Assembly: GCA_002713205.1 (NCBI GenBank)
Contig: PAVW01000016.1
Coordinates: 2,443 to 8,471, forward strand
Source of the DNA: Nitrososphaerota archaeon
GTDB lineage: Archaea > Thermoproteota > Nitrososphaeria > Nitrososphaerales > UBA57
Direction of reading: 5' to 3'
Length of the DNA: 6,029 nt
In this document: one piece after another, positions 1 through 6,029 of the stretch
How positions within the stretch are numbered: position 1 is the first letter of the stretch
Layout of the letters: the number at the start of each line of letters is the position of its first letter
The notes under the pieces: model-generated
The model's database searches: none
Seen by the model: the letters and a program-made list of their open reading frames with translations, nothing else
What the model was told of the DNA's origin: nothing
Position numbers and translations under genes: made by a program

Positions 1-65
1 TCTATAGCTTTAAAATCACCGTAAGCTTTTGTAACATTTGTTGCGTTAATTGATATTTCTCCCAT
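1..65 (-). CDS. ABC transporter ATP-binding protein, N-terminal fragment (gene continues past the left edge)
   Basis: The reverse complement of 1..65 reads ATG GGA GAA ATA TCA ATT AAC GCA ACA AAT GTT ACA AAA GCT TAC GGT GAT TTT AAA GCT ATA, giving MGEISINATNVTKAYGDFKAI. This fits the usual opening strand of ABC ATPases (l-x-l-x-n-v-t-K-x-Y-g-x-x-x-a-l). An AGGGGA Shine-Dalgarno-like motif (complement of 71..76) lies 5 nt before the ATG at 65..63. The gene starts 57 nt downstream of the binding-protein gene on the same strand, with no T-tract between them. Only 21 codons are visible and the Walker A motif is outside the window. Confidence 0.45.
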   Translation of the reverse strand, partial: MGEISINATNVTKAYGDFKAI

Positions 66-122
66 TTAAATCCCCTAATGAAACATTGAGAGTAATTAAA
101 GATACTTAAGTATTTACTGCGA

Positions 123-1637
123 TTAAAAGCTAAAAGGGCCTTGATCTATTGCACGGTCCTCGATAATTTTTAATGCTTCTTTTGAAGTAATTTGACCGCG
201 AATTGCACGATTTAATTGGTTCATCATTTCTCCCTCAATATTATCCCACAGTGGAAATCCAGGTTTAATATTAATCTCTCCTTTATCTATTGCATCTTTT
301 ACAACGTTAAAATGACGTATGGTTCCTTCGCTAACAAGTTCCTTTACATGAGAATCTTCATAAACTGAAGTTCTTGTAGGAACAGCCAAAGCTAAAGGAT
401 CCATTGCAACTATCAATTGAGTTGCGGCAAATGTTGCCCATTGGATAAACACCCATGCAGCAGCAGGATTATTTGAATATCTTGGAATTGCCAATCCAGC
501 TCCACTATAATGATGTGATGCGCCACTTTCACCTACAGGATTACGAGCGTAACCAACGTCTCGAACCACATAAGATTCACCGGGAATATCCATCAAAGAA
601 GCAAATTCAGTAAGATTGAGCATAGTTGCGGCTCGTCTTTGGCCCATCGCTTCTGCAGCAGGAGCCCAACCATAAAATGCAGAATTTGGTTCTGCATATT
701 TACTGACCTCAAGATAATGATCAAGAGCTGCTAGTGATTGTTCGGTATTGATAGCCGAAGAAATTGTTCCATCTTTTTCTATATTCCAGAGCTTGCCTCC
801 AAAAGAATACAACCAATTATGAAATTCCATAACAATAGATGGAAACCGTGCAGCCATAAGAACTGTACCGAATTTTGCCTTAGTAGGTTCGTGGAAATGT
901 TTGACGTCGTCAAGATATTCATCCCATGTAACAGAAACGTCACGACCTTCTGCGGAATATAAATCCTTACGGAAGAACCTTATCATTAGAGGAACTTCTT
1001 GTGGAAATTGCAAAAATGTTCCATTGAATCCAACCTCCCAAGGTGGAAGACTCAGAGTTGGAGGATAGGTACAAGTAAAATCTATAACTGGTTTAACAAA
1101 TTCATCGATATTGAGATTAGGATAAGTTAACTCAGGATATGTTTCCATTAACTCTTCAATAGGAATCAAGTGAGGAGCAAATCTTCCGACTTGCGAAACA
1201 TCTATATTCATGACATCAAAAGTAGGAGATCGAGTAGAAATCGCTAACAAGCATTTTGCTAAATTATTACGATATATATCAAATTCCATGAGTACTTTAG
1301 TTCCAGTAGATGATTCAAAATCTATTTTATTTCTAAGTAAAGCACGAGGAGCAACTTCAGCTTCTATAGCAATACGCATTTCGGTGCCAGCTATATTATC
1401 AGAAATAGATTCCAACCAACGTATAAAATCTACATATTCATCAGGAAGGTAATTTTGAGGATTTTTAGGTATTGCTAATCTTGTGGAACGACCACTAGGA
1501 GCTGAAGAATTTCCAGGTATAGGTTCGGTTTGTTGTGGTTGGTTGAATTGGTTCAGTGCAAAATAACCCGACGCACCTAAACCTACAGCCGCACCCGCAT
1601 ATCCAAGGAATTTACGTCGTGAGATTTTCGATGACAA
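123..1637 (-). CDS. Extracellular solute-binding protein, family 1 (MalE/UgpB-like, CUT1-type ABC transporter component), Tat-exported; substrate unknown
   Basis: 504-codon ORF. The only canonical start ahead of the signal sequence is TTG at 1637..1635; an in-frame TAG lies at 1691..1689 with no ATG or GTG between. The N-terminus MSSKISRRKFLGYAGAAVGLGASGYFA carries a twin-arginine S-R-R-x-F-L motif plus a hydrophobic h-region, with no lipobox Cys. A Q/P/S-rich linker (QPQQTEPIPGNSSAPSG) follows. The body matches the family-1 SBP layout, for example TWDEYLDDVKHF...FGTVLMAARFPSIVMEFHNWLYSFGGKLWN..DGTISSAINTEQSLAALDHYLEV and AGLAIPRYSNNPAAAWVFIQWAT. Confidence 0.75.
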   Translation of the reverse strand: MSSKISRRKFLGYAGAAVGLGASGYFALNQFNQPQQTEPIPGNSSAPSGRSTRLAIPKNPQNYLPDEYVDFIRWLESISDNIAGTEMRIAIEAEVAPRALLRNKIDFESSTGTKVLMEFDIYRNNLAKCLLAISTRSPTFDVMNIDVSQVGRFAPHLIPIEELMETYPELTYPNLNIDEFVKPVIDFTCTYPPTLSLPPWEVGFNGTFLQFPQEVPLMIRFFRKDLYSAEGRDVSVTWDEYLDDVKHFHEPTKAKFGTVLMAARFPSIVMEFHNWLYSFGGKLWNIEKDGTISSAINTEQSLAALDHYLEVSKYAEPNSAFYGWAPAAEAMGQRRAATMLNLTEFASLMDIPGESYVVRDVGYARNPVGESGASHHYSGAGLAIPRYSNNPAAAWVFIQWATFAATQLIVAMDPLALAVPTRTSVYEDSHVKELVSEGTIRHFNVVKDAIDKGEINIKPGFPLWDNIEGEMMNQLNRAIRGQITSKEALKIIEDRAIDQGPFSF

Positions 1638-1746: not shown

Positions 1747-2829
1747 ATGACAGATTTAAGTATTCAATCATTATCTAAAAAATTTAGCAATAATTTAGTT
1801 GTAGATAATATTAGCTTTGATGTCTTAGATAAATCGTTTATCACAATTCTTGGGCCAAGTGGTTGTGGAAAGACAACAGTACTTCGATGTATTGCAGGTG
1901 TTGAACAACCTGATGAAGGAATAATAAAAATTGGGAATCAAACGTTATTTTCGAAAAAAAACAATATCATGATTCCAACTGAAAAAAGAGGAATGGGAAT
2001 GGTCTATCAATCATATGCACTATGGCCTCATCTAACTGTATTTGAGAATATTGCATATCCATTAAAAATTAGAAATTTATCAAAATCTGAAATTGATGAA
2101 AAAGTAATGGAAATTATTAAATTAGTAAGGTTAAATGGGTTAGAAGATAGATTAGTTCCAAATTTAAGCGGAGGACAACAGCAGAGAGTTGCTTTAGCAA
2201 GAGCTTTGGTTTATAATCCAAAACTACTTCTTTTAGATGAACCATTAAGTAATCTTGATGTAATCCTGCGAGATGAAATGAGAACTGAACTTAAAGAACT
2301 GCAACGGAAGTTAAAAATAACTACAATTTATGTAACACATGATAGAACGGAAGCACTTTCTCTAAGTGATCAGATAATTATTATGGATAAAGGAATGATT
2401 AAAGCATCAGGTACACCGGATTCATTATTAAATAATCCACCGAATTCATATGCTGGAATAATATTAGGAGATATGTCTATTTTAAGAGGAAGAGTAGTAA
2501 ACTTGGACAAATCCATGGCGACTATCAGTATACAAGGAAATAATCTGATTTGTCAGCGTATAGATCAAATAGAAAAAGGCGATGATGTAAAAGTTTTATT
2601 GAAAGGTCCTGAGGTAATAATTCATAATTCGACAAGAACAGGCTCAAATATATTTCAAGCAGTTATAAAAACTTCAGCGCATACTGGACAATTTATTGAA
2701 TATAAAATATTAATTAAAGATCAAAAAATTAAAGTTTCAAGAGCTATAACAGATTACCCATTGTACAAAGATGGAGACAACGTGTTCATTGAAATACCTT
2801 CATCAGCATGTTTGATAGTATTAGAATAA
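1747..2829 (+). CDS. ABC transporter ATP-binding protein, PotA/FbpC/CysA/MalK type with C-terminal TOBE-like regulatory domain
   Basis: 360-aa ORF with all the ABC ATPase motifs. These are Walker A GPSGCGKTT (res 36-44, nt 1852..1878), Q-loop VYQSYALWPHLTV (Q88) and signature LSGGQQQRVALARAL (nt 2164 onward). Walker B LLLLDEP is at nt 2224 onward, the D-loop is SNLD and the H-loop is IYVTHD (H198). The roughly 120-aa C-terminal extension (ILRGRVVNLDKSMATISIQG...VKVLLKGPEVIIH...IFQAVIKTSAHTGQFIEYKILI) has the beta-rich pattern of the TOBE/MalK-type regulatory domain. Confidence 0.9.
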   Translation: MTDLSIQSLSKKFSNNLVVDNISFDVLDKSFITILGPSGCGKTTVLRCIAGVEQPDEGIIKIGNQTLFSKKNNIMIPTEKRGMGMVYQSYALWPHLTVFENIAYPLKIRNLSKSEIDEKVMEIIKLVRLNGLEDRLVPNLSGGQQQRVALARALVYNPKLLLLDEPLSNLDVILRDEMRTELKELQRKLKITTIYVTHDRTEALSLSDQIIIMDKGMIKASGTPDSLLNNPPNSYAGIILGDMSILRGRVVNLDKSMATISIQGNNLICQRIDQIEKGDDVKVLLKGPEVIIHNSTRTGSNIFQAVIKTSAHTGQFIEYKILIKDQKIKVSRAITDYPLYKDGDNVFIEIPSSACLIVLE

Positions 2830-2894: not shown

Positions 2895-4025
2895 ATGTCA
2901 GATTATCTTAAAGAATTAGAAAGAGATGCCAAAGCTGATGGAAGATTAGTAATATATGCGTCATTGAGGGGCGTTTTACAGAATTCTGTCAAGGCTTTTA
3001 GAAAAAAATATGAGCATCTAAATCTCCATGTAGAATATATTTCATCCCACCCAGTACCAATAGAAAGAAGAATCGAGGTTGAAGCAGAAGCATTCAAAAA
3101 TCTCAACGAGGAAGGAGATCCAGGTACCGCAGATGTGGTAATGATGCCGCAATTTATGCTAATACAAATGGCAAATAAAGGACTATTAAGAGAATGCATT
3201 CCAGAAATAAAAAGGACACATCTTAAACTATGGCCAAATGTAATCAAAGATGAAAATGCAACATGGGCAGCTATGGCTGTGGAGCCAACAGGAGTTGTGT
3301 ATAATGATGCATTATTTAAGAAATTATATGCTGATAAAGGAGGTTTGGATTATCTCCCAACAACATTTGAAGAATATACAGATCCAAAATGGAGTGAAGC
3401 TAATGGTAAACAAGTAATAGCTGGAAAGACGATTGAATCAAGTCATTGTATTCAATCTCTGGTAAGATTTCCTGAAGGAAAAATGGGATTCTATTATCTA
3501 ATTTCATTAAAAGAACACATAGGTGAAAGTAGATGGACAGAACTTATGAAAAGAATGGCGAATAATGTTAAGCCTAGTACATACGAATGCCTTTTACATA
3601 TGACGCATAACCTAGGATTAGGCCAACATATTTTCGGTCTTCCTGCGACACTTCGTAAACAAGGAATGGGAGATGATTATTCTTACATGAGAGAAGGAGG
3701 ACTAAAGCCACTAGTTCTTACAGATATTCCGCCATCTGCAATTGCAAGATGTGCAGGATTAACATCTGCAGGTAAAAACAAAAGTGCAGGAGAATTATTC
3801 CTTAACTTTATATTTAGTGCAGATTGGCAAGATGAATTAGGAAGAACGTTAGATGGGATGGTGCCAGCAAGACCTGGAACTGTCACTGAATATTGGGTAA
3901 GTCAAGCATTAGACAAAGGATTCATTCACTATCCAAAACCTGAACATGTAGCCAAAGAAAAAGAATACATTGAGGAATTCGAAAGTCTAGGACTCGGCAG
4001 TAATTTACCCAAAGGCACAGGATAG
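2895..4025 (+). CDS. Periplasmic-binding-protein-fold protein of the Fe(3+)/polyamine/thiamine type (FbpA/PotD-like, PBP2) lacking any signal peptide
   Basis: 376-aa ORF. The first ATG at 2895 is preceded by an in-frame TGA at 2874..2876, so no N-terminal extension is possible. The N-terminus MSDYLKELERDAKADGRLVIYASL is highly charged and enters directly into the first beta-strand typical of mature FbpA/PotD-type SBPs. Family-like blocks include GRLVIYAS...VKAFRKKYEHLNLHVEY, ADVVMMPQFMLIQMANKGLLRE, NATWAAMAVEPTGVVYNDALF, TFEEYTDPKW and AGLTSAGKNKSAGELFLNFIFSADWQDELGRTLDGMVPARPG. There is no hydrophobic segment at either terminus. Confidence 0.65.
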   Translation: MSDYLKELERDAKADGRLVIYASLRGVLQNSVKAFRKKYEHLNLHVEYISSHPVPIERRIEVEAEAFKNLNEEGDPGTADVVMMPQFMLIQMANKGLLRECIPEIKRTHLKLWPNVIKDENATWAAMAVEPTGVVYNDALFKKLYADKGGLDYLPTTFEEYTDPKWSEANGKQVIAGKTIESSHCIQSLVRFPEGKMGFYYLISLKEHIGESRWTELMKRMANNVKPSTYECLLHMTHNLGLGQHIFGLPATLRKQGMGDDYSYMREGGLKPLVLTDIPPSAIARCAGLTSAGKNKSAGELFLNFIFSADWQDELGRTLDGMVPARPGTVTEYWVSQALDKGFIHYPKPEHVAKEKEYIEEFESLGLGSNLPKGTG

Positions 4026-4064
4026 CACATTCAAGTTATTAAGAGCAAGTCAATTAATATTATT

Positions 4065-5876
4065 ATGAAAATAATACAGGCAGGCGCAATTTTAATACTC
4101 GTATTAATGATGTTAATGGCAAGTACGCCAACAATTTTTGCGCAAGAACCAGTTTTCAACTGGTTCAAACCTGCTGTTAACGATCACAATACAAATTTTT
4201 TCCCCCAAGATTCAATTAATCGAGATAATGTAGGGAATTTAGTTTTAAGTTGGATATATCAAGTGCCAGAAGATCCATTCAAGATTCCTTATGTTGCGCC
4301 ATCTCTAGGTTTACAAACTGCACCTTTAGTTGTAAATGGCATAATTTATTTTACAACTTTTTATAATCGTGTAATTGCATTAAATGCAGAAACGGGTGCA
4401 GAAATTTGGCAGTATCAAGTAGATGTAATGGAATTTGTAGATGAAGAATGGTGGTGGCCAGTTCTAAGTCAAAAAAGCATAACATATGAAGACGGAACAA
4501 TTTACTTTATGGCATCTGATTGTAGGATAATTGCTTTAGATGCTCTTGATGGCAGTGAAGTATTTGTAATTCCTGATGTCTGTAAAAATGTAGAAGGAAA
4601 CACTGGTTTCTATTTTGGAGAGCATGCCCCTTTAATATTTGAAAATTTGTTAATTGCACGGCCTTCAGTTCAAGATGGCGGAGGAAGAGGATTTGTTGTT
4701 GCATATGATTTAGATACATTAGATGAAGTATGGAGATGGTTTTCAGTACCACCTGTAGGAGGAGATCCAAAATGGGATTTCAAAGACGGGAATAAAGGAA
4801 ATATCAAACCATTCGAAGGTGATTGGGGTGAAACCGATCTAATAGGAGGAGGAGCTGTATGGAGCTTGATTTCCATTGATGAAGAAACAAGGACTATATA
4901 TTTTTCAACTGGAAGCAGTCCAGGAGTAACTGACGCTGCATTACGGCCAGGACCAAATCTTTATGCGAGTTCTATTGTAGCTTTAAATGTTGATACTGGT
5001 GAAATGCAATGGTATTATCAAATAGCACCACATGACATTAACGATCATGAGATAGGTTGGAGTGTAATTCTGGGTGAAATTGAAATTAAAGGGCAGATGA
5101 AAAAAGCCATAATGGCAGGTTCCAAAACCGATCATGTATTTGTTTTAGATGCTTTGTCAGGTCAACTTCTTCATGAGCCGTTAAGACTAGGCAATCAAGC
5201 ATTTAATGTTCCAAATGATAATGCAGGAAATAATGCAGATATGAAGATTTCGCAAAAGACACTAGTTGGAAAAACTTTTTGTCCTGGAGGTAATGGAGGA
5301 ATTGAACATGCAGGAGCATTTGCGTCAAATACACTATATTATGTTAGTCAAAAGGTCTGTTGGACTGTAACAGAGGGCCCAGTAAATTACAAAGGTAAAG
5401 ATATGCAAGGTTTTATCTATGGTGCAGCAGCTGGAGAAAAACAAAATGCTACAATGTTTGCAATTGATGTATCAGACATGAGTATAAAATGGGTTTTTGA
5501 AATGCCAAACAGATACCAAAGTTCTGGAGTTACAGTTAGTGGAGGAGTTATTTATGCGGTAGATAGAGCAAGTGTAATGTATGCAATTGATCAAGAAACA
5601 GGTAAAGAACTAAGAAGAATTCAATGGGGAGGACTAGGTGCAGGCAGTATCACATTAGGAGCAACTGCAAGAGGCGATATGATGTTATTCATACCATCAG
5701 GAGGAGGTCAAGTAGCAGCAAACACTCCAGGAATAATTGCTGCGTTTAAACTGCCTGAAGGCTCAACAGATTCTTCTGCAATTATAGGAACTACAAACGA
5801 GGTAATTTTACTTTTAATTGCATCAATAGCTGTAATATCAGCAATTTACATAGTTTTTAAAATTCGAACAAAGTGA
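4065..5876 (+). CDS. PQQ-dependent (quinoprotein) dehydrogenase, eight-bladed beta-propeller, Sec signal peptide plus C-terminal transmembrane anchor; substrate unknown
   Basis: 603-aa ORF. The N-terminus MKIIQAGAILILVLMMLMASTPTIFA|QEP is a Sec-type signal (nt 4065..4142). PQQ-propeller blade motifs (A-x-D/N-x-x-T/S-G-x-x-x-W) recur: ALNAETGAEIWQY, ALDALDGSEVF, AYDLDTLDEVWRW, ALNVDTGEMQWYY, VLDALSGQLLHE, AIDVSDMSIKWVF and AIDQETGKELRRI. Core blocks line up with quinoprotein alcohol/methanol dehydrogenases: GGGAVWSLISIDEETRTIYFSTGSSPG, APHDINDHEIGWSVILGE and GSKTDHVFVLD. The C-terminus is an S/T-rich linker (PEGSTDSSAIIGTTNE), a hydrophobic helix VILLLIASIAVISAIYIVF (nt 5802..5858) and a basic tail KIRTK. 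Confidence 0.85.
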   Translation: MKIIQAGAILILVLMMLMASTPTIFAQEPVFNWFKPAVNDHNTNFFPQDSINRDNVGNLVLSWIYQVPEDPFKIPYVAPSLGLQTAPLVVNGIIYFTTFYNRVIALNAETGAEIWQYQVDVMEFVDEEWWWPVLSQKSITYEDGTIYFMASDCRIIALDALDGSEVFVIPDVCKNVEGNTGFYFGEHAPLIFENLLIARPSVQDGGGRGFVVAYDLDTLDEVWRWFSVPPVGGDPKWDFKDGNKGNIKPFEGDWGETDLIGGGAVWSLISIDEETRTIYFSTGSSPGVTDAALRPGPNLYASSIVALNVDTGEMQWYYQIAPHDINDHEIGWSVILGEIEIKGQMKKAIMAGSKTDHVFVLDALSGQLLHEPLRLGNQAFNVPNDNAGNNADMKISQKTLVGKTFCPGGNGGIEHAGAFASNTLYYVSQKVCWTVTEGPVNYKGKDMQGFIYGAAAGEKQNATMFAIDVSDMSIKWVFEMPNRYQSSGVTVSGGVIYAVDRASVMYAIDQETGKELRRIQWGGLGAGSITLGATARGDMMLFIPSGGGQVAANTPGIIAAFKLPEGSTDSSAIIGTTNEVILLLIASIAVISAIYIVFKIRTK

Positions 5877-5905
5877 GGAAGTAGAACAATAAAAGGAAAA
5901 TTAAA

Positions 5906-6029
5906 ATGAAAATATTATGCGTATTATATGACGATCCAAAAAACGGCATGCCGAGCAGATATGCTTTAGACAGTATACCTAAATTAGAAACATATCCAGA
6001 TGGTATGACATTACCAACACCAAAAGCAA
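5906..6029 (+). CDS. fdh: NAD-dependent formate dehydrogenase (D-2-hydroxyacid dehydrogenase superfamily), N-terminal 41 codons; continues past the right edge
   Basis: ATG at 5906 opens MKILCVLYDDPKNGMPSRYALDSIPKLETYPDGMTLPTPKA. This tracks the N-terminus of Pseudomonas sp. 101 NAD-FDH as I recall it (AKVLCVLYDDPVDGYPKTYARDDLPKIDHYPGGQTLPTPKA), with roughly two-thirds identity including the LCVLYDDP and TLPTPKA blocks. AGGA at 5894..5897 lies 8 nt before the ATG. The gap from the upstream quinoprotein gene is only 29 nt. Confidence 0.8.
   Translation, partial: MKILCVLYDDPKNGMPSRYALDSIPKLETYPDGMTLPTPKA

Follow-up and report, generated by a model that had tools for sequence, protein, structure and literature searches.

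The 6,029-nt stretch of archaeal DNA examined here (contig PAVW01000016.1 of assembly GCA_002713205.1; the whole stretch is called the window below) holds 4 complete genes and the start of a fifth at a GC content of ~35%, and it derives from the heterotrophic marine Thaumarchaeota (HMT). Its last two genes are the subject of this analysis. The first (4065..5876, + strand) encodes an exported and C-terminally anchored eight-bladed propeller of 603 aa that resembles the dehydrogenases using pyrroloquinoline quinone (PQQ) and belongs to the HMT quinoproteins, and the second (5906..6029, + strand) is represented by the first 41 codons of an NAD+-dependent formate dehydrogenase (FDH), cut at the window end. 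We consider it probable that this arrangement arose by inter-domain capture, whereby a bacterial FDH gene entered an existing archaeal quinoprotein operon and would there serve formate oxidation in the cytoplasm. A first-pass annotation of the window had taken the adjacency to mark a dedicated route from alcohols or one-carbon (C1) compounds to CO2. This claim found no support, because the adjacency is confined to one clade, the FDH appears to be a bacterial import and the propeller does not show the features that define methanol dehydrogenases. The tie between the propeller and the FDH would thus be positional (a capture of expression) and not that of a dedicated pathway.

The 41 codons present in the window match NCBIfam NF005750 (NAD-dependent formate dehydrogenase, in the D-2-hydroxyacid dehydrogenase superfamily) over profile positions 3-42 with E 4.7e-11, and the gene borders of the first-pass annotation (a 603-aa PQQ propeller ending at 5876 and an FDH starting at 5906) agree with the open reading frames and with the Pfam and NF005750 matches. 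The complete FDH gene was found on the related contig L001 (91.6% identical to the window in DNA). Its product of 398 aa scores 675 bits with NF005750 (equivalog cut-off 329) and aligns end to end with the FDH of Pseudomonas sp. 101 (2GO1/2NAC, E 4e-199). The residues that we take to be catalytic (Asn146, Arg284, Gln313 and His332 in Pseudomonas sp. 101 numbering) and those presumed to form the NAD site (GxGxxG and Asp221) are all identical in the alignment of the L001 protein with 2GO1; in the window such residues lie past its end. On L053, which shares 98% DNA identity with the window, the FDH runs on for 344 codons. Within HMT the dN/dS of the FDH is 0.06-0.10, i.e. purifying selection, from which it follows that the gene is probably maintained and functional. 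Also, no signal sequence is present, so the enzyme would be cytoplasmic.

Thirteen neighbourhood proteins were mapped by tblastn onto all loci fetched, and the gene tables were also inspected. An FDH gene directly follows the PQQ gene in 9 of the 9 sequences whose PQQ protein is at least 93% identical to that of the window (the window itself, L001, L002, L003, L042, L051, L052, L053 and L054; the relatives have 93-98% identity), and in 0 of 42 orthologous or paralogous loci at 76% PQQ identity or less. It is not present in 18 loci at 74-76% identity, in which the other twelve genes keep an unchanged order, namely a twin-arginine solute-binding protein (TatSBP, minus strand), an ATP-binding cassette (ABC) transporter ATPase (ABC360), a solute-binding-protein-like (SBP-like) gene, PQQ, u266, u162, u113, MoxR, DUF58, TM322 (a multi-transmembrane protein), u561 and citrate synthase (minus strand). 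It is also missing from 20 loci at 40-58% identity and from 4 at 68-71%, and in the latter the PQQ gene is followed by genes for a DHA2 efflux transporter and a thermosome. The synteny that the first-pass annotation had proposed to look for as a sign of a PQQ-dehydrogenase/FDH module is therefore real within the window's own clade and is not conserved beyond closely related genomes, which comes near to the absence from every relative that it had itself named as fatal to its reading. In the loci lacking FDH, the ATG of the next gene lies 1-4 nt past the PQQ stop (typically TGAaATG), and because of this gap the PQQ gene and u266 can be regarded as a translationally coupled pair.

The place where FDH entered this pair is marked in L001 by a 35-nt direct repeat, which brackets an FDH cassette at 8257-9558. 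The two copies (8222-8256 and 9559-9593) are 34/35 identical and lie 1337 nt apart. The left copy is the end of the PQQ gene including its TGA, and the right copy has ATGA as its last letters, right where u266 begins, i.e. it retains the old stop/start overlap, so it appears that the old junction was duplicated. Within the cassette of ~1.3 kb, the FDH gene (1197 nt) is preceded by a leader of 33 nt and followed by a trailer of 72 nt that has a T7 run. By comparison with L001, the left copy in the window was located at 5842..5876 (+ strand), where it again forms the 3′ end of the PQQ gene with its TGA and holds a TATA-like box, TTTTTAAAA; it is 31/35 identical to the left copy of L001, and the right copy lies past the window end. 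We propose that in the ancestral state the PQQ gene stood third in a co-directional run (ABC ATPase, signal-less SBP of the metal-binding type, PQQ dehydrogenase) and was translationally coupled to a downstream cluster of membrane-protein, MoxR and DUF58 genes. A cassette of ~1.3 kb from a marine bacterium (nearest: Bacteroidota) would then have entered the junction between the PQQ stop and the next start in the ancestor of the window's clade, and by duplicating the last 35 nt of the PQQ gene the insertion would have preserved both the PQQ C-terminus and the downstream start context.

Relatives of the FDH were sought among 5.8 billion clustered proteins. The nearest ones outside the clade are 90-91% identical in protein, with 90.2-91.3% for copies on Bacteroidota contigs, and the DNA identity between archaeal and Bacteroidota copies is 86.4-87.0% over the coding region only, as homology stops within a few bases of the start and stop codons. 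Those nearest relatives that could be placed are Bacteroidota (L010, which carries a gene with a T9SS sorting domain, and L011, which is Flavobacteriaceae bacterium PRS1 with an FDH ~90% identical to the archaeal one), and in these the FDH is a solitary gene near an integrase or an IS1595 transposase. This type of FDH is widespread in marine bacteria at 85-91% identity, including a Pelagibacteraceae (SAR11) protein at 85%. Whereas the bacterial FDHs examined are solitary, the archaeal copy sits in a quinoprotein operon and is flanked by a 35-nt duplication of host sequence. The HMT copies form a group of their own, with 96-98% mutual identity in DNA vs 86-87% to bacterial copies. The dS between HMT and Bacteroidota FDH is 0.61-0.69, and that between the two HMT clades (window vs the 75% clade) is 1.24-1.81 for the PQQ and ABC360 genes and 0.64-1.0 for the SBP-like gene. 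Taken with the distribution, these values suggest a single transfer from bacteria to an archaeon after the split of the two HMT clades and before the clade bearing FDH diversified, i.e. a recent bacterial import.

A transfer in the opposite direction would require that FDH was ancestral at this site in HMT, disappeared several times (or a single time, in the large 75% clade) and was acquired by the Bacteroidota from archaea. Presence and absence alone do not give polarity, and the sequence composition is the same in both groups, which leaves room for such a history. Yet FDH is missing from all three classes of more distant loci, and the FDH-less loci show an intact tight stop/start with no deletion scar, while the duplicated junction is found in the FDH-bearing locus. 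The dS between HMT and Bacteroidota copies also falls below the between-clade dS of the flanking genes, the FDH type is common in marine bacteria including Pelagibacteraceae, and the term 'formate dehydrogenase' does not occur in those parts of the supplements and annotation tables of Aylward & Santoro 2020 (PMC7300363) that were accessible. We therefore regard an ancestral archaeal FDH as very improbable.

It may be asked if the adjacency was created by metagenome assembly, given that FDH is highly conserved across abundant marine taxa. Contigs of this clade often end within FDH (the window at 6029, L002, L003, L042, L053 and L054), one member of the clade is demonstrably chimeric at its 5′ end, and two contigs with identical flanks differ inside the gene. 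Such breaks would be expected if assemblers tangle at a gene that is ~87% identical to abundant bacterial copies. Against a chimera, the left PQQ-FDH junction recurs in at least 8 independent assemblies from different samples and assemblers, both junctions are read through into archaeal genes in L001 (a contig of 154 kb) and L051, a 35-nt duplication is not a product of assemblers, and the HMT copies group apart from the bacterial ones. The adjacency thus exists in nature, an origin as an artefact of assembly being barely conceivable.

The two contigs with identical flanks are L001 and L051, which come from sister samples. They are 99.9-100% identical in the ABC, SBP-like and PQQ genes and in the FDH ends, and differ by ~19% over ~450 nt within the NAD-binding domain of FDH (L001 ~8790-9240). 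Either recombination brought in this tract from another FDH allele, or the assembly is a mosaic there. The chimeric contig is L052, which has low coverage. Its positions 1-516 are unrelated (66% GC), and at 3901-5910 the FDH is followed by a cupredoxin, a presenilin-like membrane protein, a PNPOx-like protein and a PNPase-like fragment, with no u266. If this 3′ part were genuine, it would put a blue copper protein beside the PQQ dehydrogenase and FDH. The cupredoxin was considered as an electron acceptor and was set aside, as the contig is of low coverage and chimeric at one end.

Several observations weigh against capture as we have described it. Only L001 and L051, with 91.6% DNA identity to the window, show the junction on the right-hand side; the contigs of the window's closest relatives (L053 and L054) stop within FDH, and L052 has a different context downstream of it. 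GC and GC3 give no independent sign of foreignness, donor and host both being at ~35% GC, and the donor is only approximated, with the taxonomy known for few of the closest FDH proteins. Finally, the retention of FDH under purifying selection beside the quinoprotein across the clade is what a selected functional coupling would also look like.

The PQQ gene stops with the TGA at 5874-5876 and the FDH starts with the ATG at 5906. The 29-nt spacer between them (5877..5905, + strand, GGAAGTAGAACAATAAAAGGAAAATTAAA), which would be the 5′ leader of the inserted cassette, has no run of 5 or more T and carries AGGA at 5894-5897, 8 nt ahead of the ATG, just as the first-pass annotation had described it. 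No hairpin-type terminator was found in 3900-6029, and scans for Rfam families, tRNA and bacterial promoters or terminators returned nothing relevant. Co-transcription of the two genes is plausible because FDH sits inside a gene pair that was ancestrally coupled in translation, and read-through from the operon is the simplest expectation as FDH was dropped in the middle of this pair with no terminator-like signal ahead of it. Judged from the sequence, the most likely source of FDH transcripts is read-through from the PQQ operon. The box TTTTTAAAA in the duplicated 35-mer lies ~45-50 nt ahead of the FDH ATG and 20-28 nt ahead of the second u266 ATG, and could possibly act as a candidate archaeal TATA box for FDH and u266, though in such an AT-rich genome a match of this kind is a possibility only. 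Expression of FDH may therefore combine operon read-through with some addition from this box.

The product of the upstream gene matches Pfam PF01011 (PQQ) with E 1.2e-54. Its hydropathy peaks are confined to residues 1-27 and 570-602, and in the AlphaFold model (mean pLDDT 91, pTM 0.87) the helices 2-19 and 577-602 flank a confident propeller, the first of them being followed by a low-confidence linker at residues 21-25. As the hydropathy peaks and the terminal model helices agree, we assign a signal peptide to residues 1-26 (MKIIQAGAILILVLMMLMASTPTIFA, followed by QEP at the putative cleavage site; 4065..4142, + strand) and a C-terminal transmembrane anchor to residues 577-602, followed by the basic residues KIRTK (5793..5870, + strand). 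The N-terminal signal segment is kept in orthologues and the C-terminal helix is present in 16/16 aligned orthologues. These features indicate a propeller that would be exported and held at the outer face of the membrane by its C-terminal helix. With Foldseek, the model matched 30 quinoprotein structures at probability 1.00, with TM-scores of 0.70-0.74 and 17-25% identity, among them XoxF, MxaF and type I, II and III alcohol dehydrogenases (ADHs); model and fold search thus agree on the eight-bladed beta-propeller fold of quinoproteins.

Placement of the propeller among quinoproteins was based on profile scores, fold scores and motif mapping, and it reached the cut-off of no NCBIfam subfamily. 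The score with TIGR03075 (methanol/ethanol PQQ dehydrogenase family) is 227 bits vs a cut-off of 480, nearly equalled by the 214 bits with TIGR04528 (acido-empty-quinoprotein, cut-off 650). With TIGR03074 (membrane-bound glucose/quinate/shikimate dehydrogenase) it is 122 bits vs a cut-off of 833, and the multi-helix N-terminal membrane domain of that family is not found in the propeller, which has one signal-like segment and one C-terminal helix only. The best sequence matches are type II quinohemoprotein ADHs (146 bits and E 9e-42 for the single sequence, 221 and 214 bits with the family profile), followed by XoxF (125 bits for the single sequence, 212 bits with the family profile), and MxaF, sorbose dehydrogenase and ExaA score below these. 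By such scores the propeller is about equally far from all characterised quinoproteins.

The active site was mapped by five pairwise alignments and a profile alignment, using sequence only, and the residues in each column were counted over 63 family members. In all of these alignments the Cys-Cys pair is replaced by W130-W131 (W130 in 58/63). The Glu metal ligand (Glu177, MxaF numbering) becomes D204, conserved in 38/63, the Asn metal ligand (Asn261) becomes S284 in a family column of H/S/Q/A/Y, and at the position of the catalytic Asp (Asp303) the window has D327 in a family column of E31/G8/D7/A6/Q6. Taken together, the metal ligands and catalytic Asp typical of the methanol/ethanol family are not conserved in the propeller family, although the window itself has the Asp. 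The stacking Trp is conserved as W266, and Lys354 stands at the position of Arg331, as in alcohol dehydrogenases. H328 is found in 54/63 and E329 in 56/63 members, and E329 aligns with the lanthanide-specific Asp of XoxF/PedH, being Glu and not Asp. The window's D327-H328-E329 is encoded at 5043-5051, and the archaeal family has [E/D]-H-E at this place vs D-Y-D in XoxF/PedH and D-Y-A/S/T in calcium enzymes. Because this motif is conserved without the canonical Asn ligand or the Cys-Cys pair, it suggests a different metal-site architecture, and the propeller is best described as a predicted enzyme of quinoprotein fold with a remodelled metal site. It lies outside the methanol/ethanol family by the tests applied, although its function may resemble that family.

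Comparison with known enzymes gives the same picture. The propeller resembles XoxF and MxaF in export, in its eight-bladed fold (TM-score 0.70-0.74 to 6DAM, 6OC5, 4MAE and 1W6S), in the stacking Trp W266 and, for XoxF, in a carboxylate at the lanthanide-Asp position. It differs from them by an identity of 19-25%, by WW for Cys-Cys, Ser for Asn and Lys for Arg331, by a transmembrane anchor of its own and by the lack of nearby XoxJ/XoxG, MxaJ/G/I or cytochrome c genes; and unlike XoxF/MxaF of bacterial methylotrophs, its link to FDH is limited to one clade and appears to derive from horizontal transfer. To the type II quinohemoprotein ADHs (1KB0, 1KV9, 1YIQ) it is nearest in sequence and shares with them the ADH-type Lys at the Arg331 position, but it has a transmembrane helix instead of a cytochrome c domain, no Cys-Cys and altered metal ligands.

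In bacterial methylotrophs with XoxF or MxaF, FDH is the terminal step of C1 oxidation. A functional C1 module may be imagined for the window also, in which methanol, formaldehyde or short alcohols would be oxidised outside the cell by the exported quinoprotein, formate would enter the cell and a co-transcribed FDH would convert it to CO2, the site being selected for the shared pathway. Such a module would fit the co-orientation of the two genes 29 nt apart with no terminator between them, the purifying selection on FDH at the same site across the clade, the family scores that place the propeller about as close to XoxF (212 bits) as to type II ADHs (221/214), the carboxylate E329 (56/63) at the lanthanide-specific Asp position of XoxF/PedH, and the complete tetrahydrofolate (THF) C1 route reported for related genomes by Reji & Francis (10.1101/2019.12.22.886556). 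However, in all other HMT loci the orthologous propellers evidently function with no FDH beside them, the Bacteroidota relatives of FDH are solitary, the methanol/ethanol profile score is less than half of its cut-off, and the active site has lost the Cys-Cys pair (W130-W131), the Asn ligand (to Ser) and the Glu ligand (to Asp), with a catalytic-Asp column of D/E/G/A/Q. In addition, no formate transporter or channel, cytochrome c, xoxJ/G/mxaJ/G/I-like gene or C1 gene was found within ~10 kb in the relatives. We consider the module unlikely for these reasons. A metabolic link would need formate (or formaldehyde plus further enzymes) from the propeller and also the import of formate, neither of which is in evidence; the quinoprotein may have such a C1 link, but the data give it no support.

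Capture of FDH for its expression, which we prefer, makes fewer demands on the propeller. By homology and by the proposal of Aylward & Santoro, the propeller would oxidise an alcohol, sugar or aldehyde outside the cell and pass electrons to the respiratory chain, while FDH would oxidise formate to CO2 in the cytoplasm with formation of NADH. An organism that draws its formate from seawater or from THF-linked C1 reactions would resemble SAR11, which Aylward & Santoro cite for alcohol use. The formate used by this FDH could equally come from seawater or from the THF-linked C1 reactions that are reported for these archaea (10.1101/2019.12.22.886556).

The assignment of the window to HMT agrees with the archaeal context noted by the first-pass annotation. 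In a scan of GTDB with one genome per species, propeller orthologues at 75-76% identity sit in metagenome-assembled genomes (MAGs) labelled Thaumarchaeota or Nitrososphaerales (ATL, ASW2_bin45, ASW8_bin1, UBA223 and ALOHA_A2.5_79), the first four of which are HMT of Aylward & Santoro 2020 (PMC7300363). Many relatives at 93-98% identity are found in marine metagenomes, and none of the GTDB genomes returned by the scan represents the FDH-bearing clade. HMT MAGs carry 4-19 PQQ dehydrogenases each, in 21 families, mostly with signal peptides and transmembrane segments and all without the Cys-Cys motif, and their substrates are given there as unknown (PMC7300363). The propeller conforms to this group in lineage, in the PQQ Pfam domain, in having a signal peptide and a transmembrane segment, in lacking Cys-Cys and in its distance from characterised enzymes; it differs in its D-H-E motif, which is outside their DYD/DXD classes, and in the neighbouring FDH, which is mentioned neither there (PMC7300363) nor by Reji & Francis. 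The word 'formate' is absent from the main text of Aylward & Santoro, and FDH is not mentioned in a 2026 HMT study. Export, membrane tethering and atypical character, as read by the first-pass annotation, were confirmed by hydropathy, the model and the family scores. Its suggestion of an undescribed methanol route was anticipated, as a preprint by Reji & Francis (10.1101/2019.12.22.886556) speculates that HMT PQQ enzymes turn methanol to formaldehyde and then formate, and the enzymes were described in 2020 (PMC7300363). Both the membrane-tethered atypical archaeal quinoprotein and the idea of methylotrophy are thus already known from earlier HMT papers.

Upstream of the PQQ gene lies an SBP-like gene (2895..4025, + strand) for a signal-less protein of 376 aa with a solute-binding fold of the ferric or metal-citrate binding class. 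It has weak Pfam matches to SBP_bac_8/1/6, no match in a sequence search of the PDB, and a model (pLDDT 86) whose best folds are MctA, FutA and FbpA at TM-scores of 0.6-0.7. None of the 20 clusters of its family has a signal peptide. The dN/dS of the gene is 0.03, with invariant H45, H52, E130, E194 and Y230-E231-C232. We rejected it as an analogue of MxaJ/XoxJ because its SBP class differs and it lacks a signal peptide. It always travels with the ABC ATPase, and no permease gene is nearby. Signal-less SBP-like paralogues (~22% identical) directly follow other PQQ-dehydrogenase paralogues in HMT MAGs (L033 3709-4716, L036 4071-5084, L037 7295-8302 and L034 5552-6553). The partnership of SBP-like and PQQ-dehydrogenase genes is better conserved than that with FDH, and it may relate to the supply of metal or cofactor, a role still unproven. 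The ABC ATPase itself (ABC360, 360 aa, 1747..2829, + strand) is of the PotA/FbpC/WtpC type by its profile matches.

The divergent solute-binding protein TatSBP (504 aa, 123..1637, - strand), assigned by profile matches, has a twin-arginine signal. In relatives an exporter pair of the ABC-2 type, made up of a DrrA-like ATPase plus an ABC2_membrane_2 permease, comes next on the same strand (window 1-1637, - strand, and L001 698-4017 for the arrangement). A solute-binding protein with an exporter-type transporter is an unusual pairing, and every HMT locus down to 60% identity retains it next to the PQQ cluster. The exporter ATPase was tried as the PedA-like ABC protein of a 'PQQ-ADH system' and rejected, since it reaches 151 bits with TIGR03864 (cut-off 302), which is the seventh rank in a series of generic ABC matches. 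A transporter of the major facilitator superfamily that follows the 70% orthologue (L007) was likewise rejected as a formate/oxalate carrier, being of the DHA2 efflux type.

On the other side of the PQQ gene, the 75% and 94% clades share a co-directional cluster (L001 9590-16159) of three small membrane proteins, a MoxR AAA+ ATPase (AAA_3), DUF58, a multi-transmembrane protein and a 561-aa secreted anchored protein. This cluster recalls the MxaR/MxaS of methanol dehydrogenase clusters and was considered as a candidate maturation system of that kind, but only generic AAA_3 and DUF58 matches are obtained, and it is not beside the 70% orthologue. A MoxJ-type binding protein, a cytochrome cL/XoxG and a small subunit were found neither in the window nor within ~10 kb in L001 or L004, in line with the first-pass annotation, which had seen no mxaJ/G/I-like accessory genes. 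Additional divergent PQQ-propeller paralogues (620-751 aa, 22-37% identical) lie within 10 kb of the orthologue in many Nitrososphaerota and Caldarchaeales genomes (e.g. L004 1-3646, L007 100-2310 and 17170-19032, and L024-L031), i.e. a local build-up of quinoprotein genes.

As a whole, the locus consists of an HMT quinoprotein and a standard NAD-FDH, both of known kinds, and by itself it reveals no new pathway; what it adds is an inter-domain capture with a preserved junction duplication. It is also a warning that genes found side by side on a metagenomic fragment may have become neighbours very recently. A larger meaning would follow if the capture had given one dark-ocean Thaumarchaeota subclade a working energy route from an extracellular quinoprotein through formate to CO2, with the atypical propeller oxidising methanol or formaldehyde. 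Aerobic C1 oxidation would then exist in an archaeal form, possibly dependent on rare earths, that was put together by transfer between domains, and we would be surprised to see this borne out. The 35-nt duplication is a clean scar that dates and orients the event, and with it the locus offers a case of recent gene capture between domains that can be checked. HMT form an abundant group in the dark ocean, and their energy supply is regarded as centred on quinoproteins. One HMT subclade would, on our reading, have widened its energy metabolism with a ready-made FDH from co-occurring bacteria, and the FDH insertion may serve as a marker for a formate-oxidising HMT ecotype.

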